A stretch of 62,748 bases of DNA, counting the filler, from Nitrospirota bacterium (GTDB taxonomy: Bacteria; UBA2233): assembly GCA_011620345.1 (NCBI GenBank). It is 3 parts of 3 records of this genome, joined end to end, with 100 filler letters (N's around TTAATTAATTAA, not from the genome) between each part and the next. Parts side by side here need not be neighbours in the genome. Positions count along the whole stretch, not along the records: positions 42,011 to 62,748 come from WOZJ01000063.1; 2 more parts are not named here. One strand, 5' to 3'. Below the pieces are notes generated by a model. It did no database searches. It saw nothing but the letters and a program-made list of their open reading frames with translations, and was not told where the DNA came from. The position numbers and the translations under genes were made by a program. Positions 40,161-61,470 of this stretch are shown here, piece after piece (the first letter of the stretch is position 1; every line of letters starts with the position of its first letter).

Positions 40161-41783
40161 TCAAAAGAGGCCTAGGGTGTTTCCTTGGCCGTCCACGTCG
40201 ATCCCAAGGGCTGCGGGGCGCCTAGGAAGGCCAGGCATGGTCTGGATGTTGCCGGCGAACGCCGTAATGAACCCGGCACCCGTGGCGATTCGAAAACCTT
40301 CGATAGGGACGATAAAGTCCTTTGGTACACCTTTTTTTTGGGGGTCGTGGCTAAGCGACATGGGAGTTTTGGCGATGTTCACGGGAAGACCGGTTAGGCC
40401 AAGCGCCTTGATTCGCTCGAGCTCTTTCACCGCCTTCGGCGAAAAGCGAACATCGTCCGCCCCGTAGAGCGTTGTGGCGATTCGATACAGCTTATCTTGC
40501 ATGGTGCATTCTTGCGTGTAGAGCGGACGAAACCCTTGCCCTTCCGTATGGGCCTCGAGCAGCAATTCGGCCAGGTCCATTACGCCTGCCGAGCCCATCG
40601 CATGGGCGTGTACTTGCCTTGTCCCAGACGCTCCATACCCCAGGGCAGCGTCCTCGATCTCCCGAAGGGCCCCTGGGGCGTCGCCTGCAAACACGTTCAA
40701 CGCGACAAGGCAAGGTAGCCCGAACGTTCGGACGTTCTCGATATGCTTTTGCAAGTGCGAAAGTCCAGCCTTTAGCCAGCCATTGCCGTGGGTTAAGAGC
40801 CCTTGGAGGGTGACGACGAGCACGACCAATTCCGGAGCCGTTCCCAAGGCTGGCACCTTGATGTGGGCTAATTTTTCGAGCCCGCAGTCTGTCCCGAACC
40901 CCGCCTCGGTCACGACGATGTCGCCTAAGGCGAGGGCCAGGGTATCCGCCACGACCGAACTCGCCCCATGGGCGATGTTCGCGAACGGGCCTGCATGAAC
41001 AAAGCACGGGGTGTGCTCGATCGTCTGGACAAGGTTTGGGAGGAGGGCATGCTTTAAGAGTGCTGCCATCGCGCCAGAAGCGCCCAATGCCTCGAGCGTC
41101 ACGAGCCCGCCTTGGGCATCGAACCCCACGCTTGCCCGGCCAAGCCGGAGCCTTAGATCGTCCAAGCCTTTCGCGAGAGCCAAAATGGCCATTGTCTCGG
41201 AGGCGGGCGTAATTTCGAAGCGTGTTTCCTCGAGTTCTCCGCCGATCCCCGCCACGATGTGACGAAGCTGCCGCTCGTTCAAATCCATCACTCTAGGCCA
41301 CCATACAGATCGGGGTTCGATCCCCAAGGCGTTTCCGTGGAAGCGGTGGGCGCCAAGGACGGCGGCGGCCAGGTTCTGGGCCTGGGTAACGGCGTGGAAA
41401 TCGCCCGTGAAGTGCAGGTTGATCTCTTCCATCGGCAGGATTTGGGCAAACCCGCCCCCGGTGGCGCCCCCCTTGATCCCGAAAACGGGCCCCATCGAGG
41501 GTTCCCGAAGGGTGAGAATCGCCCTCTTGCCAAGCCGCCAAAGTGCCATGGCAAGCCCGATCGCGACGGTCGTCTTTCCTTCGCCCCTGGAACTGGCCGG
41601 GTTGATCCCGCTGACGACGACGTAGCGGGCCCGCTTGGGTGTGCCAAGAGGTGCCTCAAGCTTTACCTTTGCGATATGCTCCCCATACATGAACAACCGC
41701 TCGGGCGAAAGGCCAAGCCCGCCTGCAACCTCGCGGATCGGCTTGAGGCGGACCTTGCTTGCAATCTCGAAATCTTTGGTCAT
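40161..41783 (-). CDS. fhs: Formate--tetrahydrofolate ligase
   Basis: GEGKTT, KGGATGGG, NLHFTGD, GPFANIAHG, TEAGFG, MPGLP. Confidence 0.95.
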   Translation of the reverse strand: MTKDFEIASKVRLKPIREVAGGLGLSPERLFMYGEHIAKVKLEAPLGTPKRARYVVVSGINPASSRGEGKTTVAIGLAMALWRLGKRAILTLREPSMGPVFGIKGGATGGGFAQILPMEEINLHFTGDFHAVTQAQNLAAAVLGAHRFHGNALGIEPRSVWWPRVMDLNERQLRHIVAGIGGELEETRFEITPASETMAILALAKGLDDLRLRLGRASVGFDAQGGLVTLEALGASGAMAALLKHALLPNLVQTIEHTPCFVHAGPFANIAHGASSVVADTLALALGDIVVTEAGFGTDCGLEKLAHIKVPALGTAPELVVLVVTLQGLLTHGNGWLKAGLSHLQKHIENVRTFGLPCLVALNVFAGDAPGALREIEDAALGYGASGTRQVHAHAMGSAGVMDLAELLLEAHTEGQGFRPLYTQECTMQDKLYRIATTLYGADDVRFSPKAVKELERIKALGLTGLPVNIAKTPMSLSHDPQKKGVPKDFIVPIEGFRIATGAGFITAFAGNIQTMPGLPRRPAALGIDVDGQGNTLGLF

Positions 41784-41910
41784 CCAAAACCGCCCTTTTC
41801 CTGTCTCGCTCCGCCGGTTTCGTGGAGCGCTTCGTACAAGATTCATCATTGTAACGTTTTTTGAGGACTGGGTGTAGTTATGAGAGCCCGTCTCTGCGAG
41901 CACTTTGGCT

Positions 41911-42010
41911 NNNNNNNNNNNNNNNNNNNNNNNNNNNNNNNNNNNNNNNNNNNNTTAATTAATTAANNNNNNNNNNNNNNNNNNNNNNNNNNNNNNNNNN
42001 NNNNNNNNNN
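41911..42010. other. Artificial contig linker
   Basis: 44 N + TTAATTAATTAA + 44 N, identical to 18337-18436. Confidence 0.95.
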
Positions 42011-42051
42011 TAAGCAGAGGGTCGCTGGTTCGAATCCAGCACGGCTCACCA
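42011..42051 (+). tRNA. 3' half of a tRNA, probably tRNA-Lys (truncated by contig start)
   Basis: T-arm GCTGG-TTCGAAT-CCAGC, acceptor strand ACGGCTC, discriminator A and CCA; anticodon ends in T. Confidence 0.85.
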
Positions 42052-42065
42052 TTCTCTTTTTTCAT

Positions 42066-43332
42066 CCTCCCCTAGCACTGGATACCCCGGCCTTTAGACC
42101 GGGGAGGAAAGCGCCTTTTAGGTTGTGATCCGTTTAGTCCTATGGTAACATATCCTATATGAGTACGAAAACGGTATCCCTCAAGTTGGTTACGTCTGCG
42201 GAGCAGGCTTCTGGGCTGTGCAGCATGGCCGAGGCCTACGCCAAGGCATGCGACATGATAGCAGCGTTCGCCAGGGAGCACCGCTGCTGGAACAGGGTAG
42301 CCCTTCACCACTTGGCTTACTACCCGGTCAGGGAAGCAATGCCTGCGCTGGGTTCGCAGATGGTGTGCCAGGCCGTGCACCGCGTGGCCGACACCTACAA
42401 AACACTCAAAGCGAACGGTAAGATCCGCAAAGACAGGCCGGTGCCATCCGTCGCTTTCCAGCCTACGTCCGTCAGCTACGACAAAAGGACATACTCGATA
42501 CAAGGCGACACGCTCTCGCTGTTCACGCCGTCCGGACGAGCCAGGATTCCGTTCGTCTGCGGCAAACATCAGCGCGACCTTATGGCTTCGGGCACCCCGA
42601 AGGAAGCTAGGCTTGTCGTCAGAAAGGGCGTCTGGTACTTCAACCTTGCTCTGGACATCCCAGACGTGGCCCCAGTCCAAGGCAGCGGGGTTATTGGCGT
42701 GGACGTCGGGGAAAACAACCTCGCCGCCACCAGCACTGGCAAGGTATGGGGCGGGGGGAAGCTCAGACACGACCGAGACAAACATCTTGCCCAACGCAGC
42801 AGTCTCCAATCCAACGGTAGCCGCGCAGCTAAGCGTAAACTCAAGGCTATCTCCGGGCGCGAGGAACGGCACGTAAAGCACATCAACCACGAAACCAGCA
42901 AAGCCATAGTAACCGAAGCCCTGCGCGCAGGCACCAGCGAGATCCGTATGGAAGACTTGACCCACATCCGGGCCAGCATAAAGGCCGGGAAGCGTATTCG
43001 GGCCAGGCTGCACCGCTGGGCCTTCCGACAGCTGCAGGACTTCGTCTACTACAAGGCCAAGGCCGCTGGCCTTCGTGCAACCTACACCGACCCCGCCCAC
43101 ACAAGCCAGACGTGCAGCGTTTGCGGGGCCATCGGAAAGCGGGAGAGGCATCTGTTCTCCTGCGCGTGCGGAACACGGCTGCACGCGGACGTGAACGCGT
43201 CCAAGAACATTGCCGGGTTTGCCATGCCTATCGGCTTGGCGAGGGGCGTCCGTAACTCGTCCTGCATATTCGCGCATCAGGCCAGTCCTCCTGCAGCGAA
43301 AAGCCCCTCCCTTTAGGGATGGGCGTAGTTAC
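42066..43332 (+). mobile_element. Non-autonomous IS200/IS605-family element (IS1341-like, tnpB only)
   Basis: Left hairpin CCCCGG-CCTTTAGA-CCGGGG; right hairpin GCCCC-TCCCTTTAGGGA-TGGGGC; cleavage sites TCAT and TTAC fit guide tetramers GATA and AAAG. Confidence 0.88.
42159..43316 (+). CDS. tnpB: RNA-guided endonuclease TnpB
   Basis: RuvC-I GVDVG, RuvC-II MEDL, RuvC-III HADVNA; zinc ribbon TSQTCSVCG...CACG. Confidence 0.94.
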   Translation: MSTKTVSLKLVTSAEQASGLCSMAEAYAKACDMIAAFAREHRCWNRVALHHLAYYPVREAMPALGSQMVCQAVHRVADTYKTLKANGKIRKDRPVPSVAFQPTSVSYDKRTYSIQGDTLSLFTPSGRARIPFVCGKHQRDLMASGTPKEARLVVRKGVWYFNLALDIPDVAPVQGSGVIGVDVGENNLAATSTGKVWGGGKLRHDRDKHLAQRSSLQSNGSRAAKRKLKAISGREERHVKHINHETSKAIVTEALRAGTSEIRMEDLTHIRASIKAGKRIRARLHRWAFRQLQDFVYYKAKAAGLRATYTDPAHTSQTCSVCGAIGKRERHLFSCACGTRLHADVNASKNIAGFAMPIGLARGVRNSSCIFAHQASPPAAKSPSL

Positions 43333-43503
43333 TTCAACTCCTGTCTGCCTAGAATCTCCAAAAGCCTATCCATAGGCGTAAACCCTCGTTACGAAAGGCC
43401 GTTGATCGAGGCGGCTTAGAAAATACCTCGAGGGTATTTCCTAGTTCTCTAGGAATTCTTTCTTCGTTATAGAAGGCGTTTGCTTGAAAAGAGCGGGCCT
43501 ATG

Positions 43504-43528
43504 GTTTAAGCTAAAAAAGTCAGGCTAT
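43504..43528 (+). promoter_or_regulatory. Possible SigB/SigF-type promoter
   Basis: GTTTAA-13nt-GGCTAT versus consensus GTTTAA-N12-14-GGGWAW. Confidence 0.4.
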
Positions 43529-43563
43529 ACACACAACCATATTATGAAATAGGAGATTCCACG

Positions 43564-44412
43564 ATGTCGCAGGAGGCCGGAGTGTGCAGTCGCCCTAGGG
43601 AAGAAAGGCTGAAAGGCTGCCCTGAGGCCGGTCAAAACCAATTTTTTGCCCTCAACGAAGCGCTGGACCAAGCCGAAGTGCGTCGGATTGCCAACGGCGT
43701 GACCGACTTCCTGAAATCCGGGGGGTTTTCCAACACGTTCGAAGATCAAGCGTTTGAGGCCAAGTTCCGTAACGGGATGGAGCGCTGGCTCGAAAGCCTG
43801 CTGGATGACGATCTTCCGGAAGAATCCTACGCCCAAGACCGGATCAGGATCGGGCGCTCCTACGTCAAGAGGGGGCTCGCCATGACCATCATCCTCAAAT
43901 CCTACTCCTATATCCGAAACGAGCTGATGCGCCTCCTTGAAGGTTCCCCCGTTTCAATGTTTACCGCCCTCAGTCAAAGGCTCGATGACGACCTAAGCTT
44001 GGTTCTCATGGCCTACGAAAAAGAACAGGTTCGTCTTGCCGAGGAGAGCCTTTCCAGCTACCGGACGATCCAGGAGCTCTCGAGCCCGATCATTGAAGTC
44101 TCAAGGCAAACGCTGCTCGTTCCGATCGTCGGCGAGATGGACGAGCAGCGCACGGACATCCTAGAGGATAAGCTACTTCAAGAGGTCGCCTCCAAAAAGG
44201 CCAAGCAAGTGCTGATGGAGTTCAGCGGCTGCGAAATTAGGGATACCCACCTGACCAAGCGTCTTTTCGAAGTATGCAGGGCCGTAGAGCTGCTTGGGGC
44301 ACGCGTCGTGTTCGTCGGCATTCGCCCCTCTTTGGCGCGTACGCTCGTTTCTATCGGGGCTGACTTCGCCGGCTTTCGTGTCGTAAGGTCGCTAGCCGAC
44401 ACCCGGGCTTAA
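43564..44412 (+). CDS. RsbR-like protein: globin-like sensor domain plus STAS domain
   Basis: IQELSSPII, LVPIVG, GARVVFVGIRPSLA; N-terminal RIRIG and helical globin pattern. Confidence 0.85.
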   Translation: MSQEAGVCSRPREERLKGCPEAGQNQFFALNEALDQAEVRRIANGVTDFLKSGGFSNTFEDQAFEAKFRNGMERWLESLLDDDLPEESYAQDRIRIGRSYVKRGLAMTIILKSYSYIRNELMRLLEGSPVSMFTALSQRLDDDLSLVLMAYEKEQVRLAEESLSSYRTIQELSSPIIEVSRQTLLVPIVGEMDEQRTDILEDKLLQEVASKKAKQVLMEFSGCEIRDTHLTKRLFEVCRAVELLGARVVFVGIRPSLARTLVSIGADFAGFRVVRSLADTRA

Positions 44413-44700
44413 GAAGGCCCAGAGTCCCAGTCCTCACGGAGCCGATGCCTTAGGAGCTTGCCAGAGGGGTTCCTGGGCAGGCTGCCAACGAACCGCACGT
44501 GGGCCGGCACGGGGAACCAATATCGCCCGTATGCAACCACCCCCTCGAAGGGCCTCTGCCGTTTCCTTTGGCCTGCCAAAGTAGTCCGCCATGACGACCG
44601 GACTACGCACGAGAATATCCCCAGCTTGTTCCGGCCCAAGGACGCGGCCGCACGTATCCACGATGGATACCTCCGTAGAAAAGAGCGGCTTTCCAGCCGT
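44409..44700 (-). pseudogene. Remnant of an AMP-forming acyl-CoA ligase (MenE/FadD-like)
   Basis: AGKPLFSTEV..GDILVRSPVVMADYF, WLHTGDIG and LPRNPSGKLLR lie in different frames, with the intervening segment deleted. Confidence 0.8.
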
Positions 44701-59026: not shown

Positions 59027-59857
59027 TTAGGCTTTCTCGGATAGCGATGTCGTTATGCGCAAGACATCTTTTAGGATGGAACGAAACGCCGCCGGTGTGA
59101 CCATGTTCGGACCGTCGGAGAGCGCCCTGTCCGGGTCTGGATGCACTTCGAAGAACAGCCCATCCACGCCGACGGCCGCGGCCGCCCGCGCCAGGGGGGC
59201 GACGAACTCGCGCTTTCCGCCAGAACGCTCCCCCTCCGCCCCCGGAGCTTGGACGGAATGGGTGGCATCGAAAACGACGGGAACTCCAAGCCGCTTGAGA
59301 ATGTCGAGCGAGCGAAAATCGACGACCAGGTCTTGGTAGCCGAAGCTAGTCCCCCGCTCGGTCAAGAAGACCCTATCGTTTCCGGCATGCCTGGCTTTTT
59401 CAACAATCCCGCCCATTTGCTGGGGGGCCATGAACTGCCCTTTCTTGATGTTCAATGGCTTGCCCGTACGGGCCGCTTCCAGGACAAGGTCGGTCTGGCG
59501 GCACAAAAACGCGGGGATCTGGAGCACGTCTACGACTTCTGCCGCGGGTCTAGCCTGCCAAGGTTCATGGATATCGGTCAGGATCGCCACCCCGGCTTCC
59601 TTTTTGACCTTGGCGAGCACTTCCAGCCCTTCTTGGATCCCAGGCCCCCGAAAGCTTCCGTGAACACTTCTATTTGCCTTGTCGAAGGAAGCCTTGAACA
59701 CGAACCCGACGCCAAGCTCCTTCGTGATTCCTTTGAGCATCTTGGCGATCTCGAGCGTCAAGGCTTCCGACTCTACCACGCAAGGGCCCGCGATTATAAG
59801 CAACGGGCTTCCAGGGCCCAAAGAGAGCCCGGGAATGATCTCGATTCGTTCCATCAT
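59027..59857 (-). CDS. kdsA: 3-deoxy-8-phosphooctulonate synthase
   Basis: AGPCVVE, KASFDKANRS, PAFLCRQT, DATHSVQ. Confidence 0.96.
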   Translation of the reverse strand: MMERIEIIPGLSLGPGSPLLIIAGPCVVESEALTLEIAKMLKGITKELGVGFVFKASFDKANRSVHGSFRGPGIQEGLEVLAKVKKEAGVAILTDIHEPWQARPAAEVVDVLQIPAFLCRQTDLVLEAARTGKPLNIKKGQFMAPQQMGGIVEKARHAGNDRVFLTERGTSFGYQDLVVDFRSLDILKRLGVPVVFDATHSVQAPGAEGERSGGKREFVAPLARAAAAVGVDGLFFEVHPDPDRALSDGPNMVTPAAFRSILKDVLRITTSLSEKA

Positions 59858-61470
59858 CAACCCGGGATCCTCTGAGATGCATGCTTCCCTGCGGCCTCGA
59901 GGAACGAAACAAACAAAGGATGCGGGGCCAGCGGTTTGGATTCAAACTCGGGGTGGAACTGGCATCCCACAAACCAAGGATGTCCGGTAAGCTCGACTAC
60001 CTCTACCAAGAGCCCGTCTGGGGAGCGGCCCATAACGCGAAGCCCCCGCTCCTCAAGAAGGCTCCGGTACTCTGGGTTGACCTCGTAGCGGTGCCTGTGG
60101 CGCTCGTAGACCTCTTCCTTGCCGTAGGCGCGAAACGAAAGCGAGCCCGAAGAGAGGCGGCAAGGATAGGCCCCAAGCCGCATCGTCCCGCCCAAGTTTT
60201 GTTTGCTTTTCTGCTCCTCCAAAAGCGCGATGACTGGGTAGGGCGTGTTTGGCTCGAACTCTTCGGAGTTGGCATCTTCGAGCCCCAGCTCGTTCCTGGC
60301 AAACTCGACAATCGCAAGCTGCATCCCCAAGCAAATCCCGAAGAAGGGCAGGCCGGAGAGCCTGGCGTTCTTGATGGCCGCGAGCATACCCAGAATGCCC
60401 CTTTGGCCAAAACCTCCGGGAACAACGATCCCGTCAAGCCCTTGGAGCATCTCCTCGGCGTTTGTTTCCTCGAGCCTTTCCGAATCGATGTAGCGGATGT
60501 CCAAATGAAAACCCGTCTGGATACCTGCATGCACAAGGGCCTCTGAAAGGCTTTTGTAAGCCTCGGTAAGTCCCATGTACTTGCCTACCATACCTATGGA
60601 GAGCGTTTTCTCGAGCCCGTAGAAGCGCTCCACGAGCCTTCTCCAGCCCTCGAGCTTGGGTGCGCGTGTCCAGATGCTCAGCTTCTCTATAATCCGTTCG
60701 TCGAGCTTCTGAGCACCAAACAAAAGGGGCACCTCGTAGATGCACTCCACGTCCTTGGCCGTGATCACGCAGCTTGCCTCGACGTTCGTAAACAGCGCGA
60801 TTTTATCCTTAATGGCAGGAGGAAGATCTTGATTTGTCCGACAAAGCAAAATGTCTGGCTGGATTCCGATTTCCCGCAGCTCCTTGACGGAGTGCTGGGT
60901 TGGCTTGGTCTTGAGCTCCTTGGCCGTCTCAATGTACGGCACGAGTGTAACGTGGACAAAGAGGACGTTTTGCGCGCCCAATTCTCCTCGCATTTGTCTT
61001 GCGGCCTCCAAAAACGGGAGCGATTCGATGTCTCCCACCGTGCCCCCGATCTCGACGATTACGATGTCGGTTTCTGGGCTCATCTTGAAGAACGAGCGTT
61101 TGATCTCGTCGGTTATGTGCGGGATTACCTGAACAGTGTCGCCCAAGTAATCTCCCTTACGCTCTTTTTGAAGCACGCTGAAGTAGATCTTGCCCGAAGT
61201 GATGTTGTTGTCCTTCGTCATGCGCGCAAGCGTAAACCGCTCGTAATGACCAAGATCTAGGTCTGCCTCGGCCCCGTCACGGGTGACATACACCTCGCCG
61301 TGCTGGTATGGGTTCATCGTGCCCGGATCGACGTTGATGTAGGGGTCTAGCTTGATGAAGTTTACGTTGAGCCCCCTGGCCTCAAGGAGCGTCCCCATCG
61401 AGGCGCTGGCAAGCCCCTTGCCCAAAGAGGAAAGAACGCCGCCTGTTACAAAGATGAACTTTGGCCGCAT
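59857..61470 (-). CDS. pyrG: CTP synthase
   Basis: [30 protein letters not shown]. Confidence 0.97.

Follow-up and report, generated by a model that had tools for sequence, protein, structure and literature searches.

A tnpB gene that lies between two apparent transposon ends and has no tnpA beside it raises the question of where exactly such an element begins and ends, and whether its target motif and guide can be read from the DNA. The gene in question is found in the window analyzed here, a stretch of 62,748 nucleotides (nt) from the assembly GCA_011620345.1 of a Nitrospirota bacterium. The first-pass annotation of this window applied the guide/cleavage-site rule of the insertion sequence (IS) ISHp608 (IS608) and proposed both the boundaries of the element and its TAM (the motif adjoining the transposon). 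Wherever this inference could be checked against data, it proved correct. The best explanation of the locus, which we regard as very probable, is that positions 42066-43332 are a 1267-bp member of the IS200/IS605 family, a non-autonomous insertion sequence of the IS1341-like, tnpB-only kind that is inserted 3′ of TTCAT and uses the mechanism outlined below.

The window strings together several contigs. Contig C65 occupies positions 18437-41910, contig C72, which carries the element, starts at 42011, and the linker between them (41912-42010) consists of runs of N around TTAATTAATTAA; nothing was read across it. To define the boundaries, the predicted empty site, ...TTTTTTCAT^TTCAACTCC..., was searched for in the DNA of 61 genomes, the host's own and 60 relatives, of which one belongs to the same genus and all others are related at the domain level only, as well as in public sequencing runs. 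It was found twice. In the sister species (genome G001), positions 59641-59694 of contig C54 match window positions 42012-42065 with 100% identity over 54 nt, and positions 59695-59958, which directly abut 59694 (the counterpart of 42065), match the window from 43333 onward with 89% identity. The order in that genome is tRNA-Glu, tRNA-Lys, and ...TTCTCTTTTTTCAT joined to TTCAACTCCCGTTTACC..., followed by the downstream gene that the window also has. The second empty site is in a 1614-nt contig (record 25) of the public run X18, which runs from 42065 straight on to 43333 and leaves out 1267 nt without ambiguity ('both' = 0). Its left 55 nt are identical to the window, and its right 668 nt show 17 differences (flank ∼97.5% identical). 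The filled allele is seen in runs X1 and X10, where contigs span both junctions; no contig skipping the element was found in runs X1, X10, and X16, the last of which covers the region in parts only. These runs are not all independent, as one of them may be the source sample.

The bases flanking the two junctions differ (T versus C at the left, C versus T at the right), which leaves the boundaries no room to slide. The element therefore spans precisely 42066-43332 (1267 bp), with no target duplication and with the insertion point 3′ of TTCAT. This pentanucleotide (42061-42065, plus strand) belongs to the flanking DNA and is retained in the empty sites. Both empty sites display the lack of a target-site duplication and the insertion 3′ of a specific motif of 4 to 5 nt that, together with the absence of terminal inverted repeats, characterize the IS200/IS605 family, and the limits proposed from the sequence hold to the base. 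The right boundary also fixes the predicted start of the guide at 43333.

In X1 and X10, some contigs agree with the element as far as 43323, where the right hairpin ends, and beyond this point have a different tail and unrelated flanks. The tail in X10 is GTGAAGTTAC, ending in TTAC and followed by other flanks; the tail in X1 is mixed (agreement, 0.58) and reads GTAAC (GTGAAGTAAC). The read depth in X1 is higher within the element than in its flanks. These divergent tails and the depth in X1 are as would be expected of related copies at other sites in those communities.

The position of the element next to a tRNA gene could suggest a different class of mobile DNA. C72 begins at 42011 within a tRNA-Lys gene, the 3′ part of which (anticodon TTT; plus strand) occupies 42011-42051. 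Its 5′ part lies on another contig of the assembly (G000:C48, in locus L002), on which ARAGORN identified tRNA-Glu(TTC) and tRNA-Lys(TTT). Some TnpB genes are carried by IS607 elements, and a serine-recombinase (IS607-type) element or the edge of a tRNA-targeted integrative island might be considered here. We assign almost no probability to this reading, as the inserted block delimited by the empty sites is exactly the 1267-bp tnpB unit, it lies past the tRNA gene and not inside it (14 nt separate its end at 42051 from the element), the relatives carry a Y1 tnpA and not a serine recombinase, and the ends combine hairpins with guides as those of IS608 do. The end of contig C48 (L002 1385-1554) matches window positions 42012-42065 over the 54 nt searched, so that C48 stops at the last base of the TAM. 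A break at 42065 fits a branch in the assembly graph caused by filled and empty alleles within one sample. The overlap between C48 and C72 could also arise from a branch inside the tRNA gene.

The organization of the two ends follows the IS200/IS605 pattern, each end having a subterminal hairpin and both hairpins being on the same strand. TCAT occupies 42062-42065 and is preceded by T at 42061. The left end (42066-42158, plus strand) contains the guide GATA at 42081-42084, which corresponds to +16 to +19 from the cleavage point, as had been predicted from ISHp608, and is followed by a hairpin with arms at 42085-42092 and 42097-42104, an 8-bp stem with a single C/A mismatch and the loop TTTA. 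The right end core (43300-43332, plus strand) consists of the guide AAAG (43300-43303), a hairpin at 43304-43323 (arms 43304-43311 and 43316-43323, 8-bp stem, one mismatch), a 5-nt spacer, and TTAC at 43329-43332. These are the final four bases of the element, the last of them set by the empty sites. The stop codon of tnpB (TAG, 43314-43316) straddles the boundary between the loop and the 3′ arm of this hairpin. When folded alone as DNA, the two hairpins are no better than shuffled sequences (z scores of −0.88 and −1.63), but their preservation in relatives, where compensatory changes are seen, shows that they are real.

The significance of these motifs can be judged from a family of 85 related loci, 5 from genomes and the best 80 of 491 metagenome relatives collected in protein-guided scans; one of the 80 (L039) is the contig that carries the element studied here. 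A profile of the left end, derived from 16 seeds, matched upstream of tnpB in 56 of the 85 loci, and collapsing identical 25-nt left flanks left 49 distinct insertions. At position −4, these flanks have T in 48 cases and G in one; at position −5, T predominates (34 flanks) over G and C (6 each) and A (3), and positions −6 to −10 are mixed. Eight loci that share the left end CGGATTGTCC... are located in eight different flanks, all of which end in TTCAT. GCAT is found at a single insertion (represented by two loci, L041 and L042), and L046 is ambiguous. These data are in agreement with the assignment of (T)TCAT as the TAM. The rule that the guide GATA specifies TCNT is borne out as well: among 51 distinct left ends, the guides are GAAA in 38, GAGA in 6, and GATA in 5, all beside TCAT, and the remaining two combine GAAA with GCAT and GCAA with TCAT. 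In other words, GA[A/G/T]A stands beside TCAT in 49 of the 51, with position 3 free and positions 1, 2, and 4 constant, and the flank reads TCAT in 50 and GCAT in one. The distance from the cut to the foot of the left hairpin varies from 16 to 22 nt in the same set.

At the right end, a pattern search recovered AAAG followed by an 8-bp hairpin and, after a short spacer, TTAC in 72 of the 85 loci, and AAAG is accompanied by TTAC in all 67 distinct right ends found in this way, as the first-pass annotation had it. The 67 distinct right flanks are unrelated and show no conservation. The pattern was missed at contig ends in L038, L058, L071, L106, and L045 (the last of which reads TTAT) and in loci with variant motifs, namely AAAT in L041 and L042, AAAA in L105, AAGG in L113, and TTAT in L108. 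The other misses are L085, in which the hairpin is deleted, and L062 and L065, in which the hairpin carries a nested insertion. In the latter two (∼1180-1260 in L062 and ∼2635-2720 in L065), an extra palindromic block of ∼40 nt separates the 5′ arm of the hairpin from its loop and looks like a small nested insertion.

Both ends were found in 49 loci, which include 33 elements of 1248-1291 bp, 15 of 1619-1688 bp, and one deleted copy of 1085 bp. The two members of the long class (∼1.65 kb) that were checked, L036 and L037, encode a Y1 transposase upstream of tnpB (NF033573, E value of 1.1e-43 in L036), and their left ends are ...TTCAT|AGAATCTCC... and ...GTCAT|AGAACTCTCC..., respectively. Since the end design is the same, this lineage has both autonomous and tnpB-only forms. 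The element in the window has no tnpA open reading frame (ORF), and the search for PF01797 gave 0 matches in the assembly (72 contigs; completeness, 96.83%); the same search was positive in 6 of 14 known control genomes. The copy in the window is therefore a non-autonomous derivative. The host genome contains no further copy of the element, its sole other DNA match being the 54-nt contig overlap mentioned above. The proposed search for other copies and a tnpA thus found neither in the host genome and both in the relatives, in the form of family copies and the Y1 tnpA of L036 and L037. The closest genomic relatives, L034 and L035 (74-75% protein identity), come from metagenome-assembled genomes of Thermoleophilia and Pseudomonadota, a distribution that points to horizontal spread of the element.

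The tnpB gene (42159-43316, plus strand) encodes a 385-amino-acid (aa) protein that matches Pfam domains PF07282 (1.9e-20) and PF01385 (8.5e-8) and scores 163 bits, against a cutoff of 100, with the NCBIfam model NF040570 (guided_TnpB, RNA-guided endonuclease TnpB family). It is full length and 73-75% identical to the relatives in the alignment. In the alignment of this protein with four relatives, Asp182, Glu265, and Asp344, as well as Cys319, Cys322, Cys335, and Cys337, are invariant, in line with the proposal of an intact TnpB that retains its RuvC acidic residues and zinc ribbon. These residues align with the GIDLG, MEDLT, ADYNA, and CxxC...CxxC motifs of the Cas12f-type chain 8j1j, the first three of which we take to be RuvC motifs I to III. 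Among solved structures, the closest by sequence are those of Cas12f (8e-34 to 2e-32 with the family profile, residues 47-351), and the search of solved structures with that profile returned no chain named Deinococcus or ISDra2 TnpB at E values up to 0.1. A tblastn search of a plasmid collection gave a top match with 53.7% identity, labeled merely "transposase," and no named IS.

The intact RuvC residues bear on the possibility that this TnpB has been domesticated to serve the host, for example, as an RNA-guided regulator, and is no longer part of a transposon. The fixed-looking site next to a tRNA operon, with which the element shares its orientation, and the genome without a PF01797 transposase would fit such a role. 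Nevertheless, the complete transposon ends have been retained along with the RuvC residues, the gene is missing at the same site in the sister species and in a close strain, and the guide region is simply the local flank, so that domestication appears highly improbable.

A number of other features of this gene can be mentioned. A promoter-like sequence, TTGTGA-N17-TAACAT, is located at 42123-42151, ending 7 nt before the ATG codon of tnpB; it is weak and was read by eye, and a promoter consensus scan did not call it upstream of tnpB. At the same place, L034 and L035 have TTTACT/TATGAT and TTGACT/TAGTAT, respectively, and TCCTATATG is kept in all of them (window region 42123-42161). This arrangement suggests that a promoter within the left end may produce a leaderless or near-leaderless tnpB mRNA. 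A 401-aa antisense ORF (42072-43277, minus strand) covers nearly all of tnpB, and long antisense ORFs over tnpB are also present in L034, L035, L036, and L037; they are probably a by-product of the high G+C content and codon pattern. The genome encodes a second intact-looking TnpB of 383 aa (G000:C40:37653-38804; L004 1225-2376, plus strand), which belongs to a different lineage (41% identity over residues 112-353) and is located directly downstream of a dnaB-like helicase gene, close to the contig end.

The prediction that an omegaRNA overlaps the 3′ end of tnpB is supported by covariation. When the terminal 230 nt (through TTAC) of 63 distinct elements were aligned, RNAalifold identified 32 consensus pairs in five helices, 26 of the pairs with compensatory changes. 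Paired cells make up 93.9%, compared to 40.9-46.6% after sliding of the partners; the covariation score of 0.614 contrasts with 0.061-0.133 in the slid controls; and none of 500 shuffles reached the observed value on any of five measures. In window coordinates, the five helices are 43139-43143/43159-43163, 43174-43178/43214-43218, 43219-43228/43233-43242, 43243-43247/43259-43265, and 43304-43311/43316-43323, and together they outline a putative omegaRNA scaffold of ∼195 nt (43139-43332, plus strand), with a 5′ end predicted near 43139 or upstream. In the annotation of this scaffold, the helices with covariation support are placed at 43139-43147/43155-43163, 43219-43228/43233-43242, 43244-43248/43258-43262, ∼43268-43280/43288-43300, and 43304-43311/43316-43323. 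Whether it acts as RNA or as DNA, this structure is conserved in the family. The minimum-energy fold of this copy itself (43135-43332) has −85.3 kcal/mol (z score, −2.64) and adds a helix at ∼43268-43280/43288-43300, which is 73% paired in the family and includes six compensated pairs. Three other helices of that fold were dropped as omegaRNA structure because they are not conserved in the family. A search against Rfam with permissive thresholds (window positions 41000-44500) matched no family.

A structured omegaRNA formed by the tnpB 3′ end and the right end would run into the flank, where the segment 43333-43352 (plus strand; starting TTCAACTCCTGTCTGC), placed by the right boundary, is predicted from the TnpB model of Meers et al. 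to serve as the guide. A guide length of 16-20 nt is assumed by analogy with other TnpB systems. The empty allele in X18 differs from the predicted guide at 43347, which is guide position 15.

By analogy with IS608 and the ISGst elements of Geobacillus stearothermophilus, the element could be mobilized by a Y1 (HUH) TnpA supplied in trans from another source, which would bind both subterminal hairpins on the top strand. Pairing of the left guide GATA with the flanking TCAT and of the right guide AAAG with the terminal TTAC would then specify the two cleavage points, the element would leave as a single-stranded circle, and the flanks would reseal without a scar as TTCAT|TTCAAC. Transcription of the tnpB 3′ end and the right end, followed by RNA processing, would produce the structured omegaRNA continuing into the flank, with the guide starting at 43333. 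The complex of TnpB with this omegaRNA would be expected to recognize TTCAT followed by the flank, that is, the resealed empty site (TTCAT then TTCAACTCCTGTCTGC...). Its cleavage by TnpB, followed by recombination with a filled copy, would restore the element. In Meers et al. 2023 (bioRxiv 10.1101/2023.03.14.532601), TnpA is described as excising the top strand and resealing a scarless donor joint that consists of the TAM and the right flank, and the element's guide RNA, whose guide is the right flank, directs TnpB to cut this donor joint, after which recombination restores the element.

Several observations weigh against this interpretation. There is no tnpA in the assembly and the element is present in a single copy, so it may currently be immobile. 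In this copy, both hairpins contain one mismatch, and all 8 pairs are intact in 30 of the 51 distinct left ends of the relatives. The consensus helix 43174-43178/43214-43218 has only two of five standard pairs in this copy, and three of the eight helices in its own fold lack conservation among the relatives (66%, 45%, and 40% paired). The covarying helices overlap tnpB codons, and the last hairpin doubles as the DNA signal for TnpA, so that part of the covariation need not reflect RNA. Finally, the CAT at positions −3 to −1, which lies within 4 nt of the profile start in all 56 loci, is fixed by the boundary anchoring and does not represent an independent count; the free evidence for the TAM comes from positions −4 and −5 and the two empty sites.

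The missing transposase, the single copy, the mismatched hairpins, and the family helix that does not form in this copy would all be expected of a stranded relic, an element whose ends and ORF look intact but which no longer moves, with its hairpins decaying in the absence of TnpA and its TnpB and omegaRNA idle. We consider this unlikely. The ORF is full length, 73-75% identical to its relatives, and encodes all the catalytic and zinc-binding residues, and a single mismatch is also found in 20 of the 51 left ends of the relatives. Besides, the presence of the element varies between strains with ∼97.5% identical flanks, so its insertion or loss must have been recent. A bolder version, in which the element is moving now in natural populations of a host without its own transposase and its TnpB belongs to a lineage nearer to Cas12f than to ISDra2 TnpB, is offered tentatively, as one that we doubt more than we believe. 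It draws on the filled and empty alleles in strains with ∼97.5% identical flanks and on the break of the source assembly precisely at the left junction, as would result from both alleles being present in a single sample. If true, it would exemplify in nature how a trans-acting TnpA and RNA-guided homing maintain or spread a tnpB-only element, and it would put on offer a 385-aa nuclease with a TTCAT TAM.

The element is an ordinary, textbook tnpB-only member of IS200/IS605; its identification is correct and not surprising, and it leaves the biology of TnpB unchanged. Its interest is practical and not conceptual. The locus specifies a complete TnpB system, which includes the protein, a putative RNA scaffold of ∼195 nt, the TTCAT TAM, the guide start, and a natural target, and as such represents a compact predicted nuclease that is ready to be tested. 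The ∼490 metagenomic relatives with coherent end motifs could be used for RNA design. This case also shows that transposon ends can be predicted with single-base precision from raw sequence by means of the IS608 guide/cleavage-site rule.

The systems to which this element can be compared differ in the details of their ends and in the nuclease. In IS608 from Helicobacter pylori, as described by He et al. 2011 (PMC3201880), the left cut is 3′ of TTAC, 19 nt 5′ of the foot of the left hairpin, the right cut is 3′ of TCAA, 10 nt 3′ of the right hairpin, and both sites are read by 4-nt guides located just 5′ of each hairpin, the left guide being AAAG. The element described here shares with IS608 the subterminal hairpins at both ends, the 4-nt guides 5′ of the hairpin feet, the left cut 19 nt from the hairpin (42066-42084 in this case), insertion without duplication, and, as predicted, scarless excision. 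The end motif, however, finishes 9 nt past the right hairpin (43324-43332) and not 10, and the same words, AAAG and TTAC, are found at the right end here and at the left end in IS608, where TTAC is the target. The target in the window is (T)TCAT with a GA[N]A guide, and this copy lacks tnpA.

The ISGst elements (bioRxiv 10.1101/2023.03.14.532601) show the same logic of the TAM, the transposon-end motif (TEM), and DNA guides with flexible spacing, as well as a donor joint, composed of the TAM and the right flank, that is the target of the element's own guide RNA. In that system, TTCAT serves an IscB element as its wild-type TAM and TnpB2 uses TTTAT, whereas the TnpB described here is of a different lineage, known from sequence only. 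The literature search found no paper that pairs a TnpB with a TCAT TAM, supplementary TAM tables being outside that search, and no priority is claimed. The Cas12f proteins (8j1j/8j12, 7wju/8dzj), which act as dimers, are the best sequence matches among solved structures, but they are longer (422-446 aa versus 385 aa); no CRISPR array is present here, and the guide would come from the transposon right end and its flank. A further parallel is provided by the tnpB-only (IS1341-type) members of the IS200/IS605 family, which likewise have tnpB alone between IS605-type ends, an arrangement represented here by 33 related loci of 1248-1291 bp.

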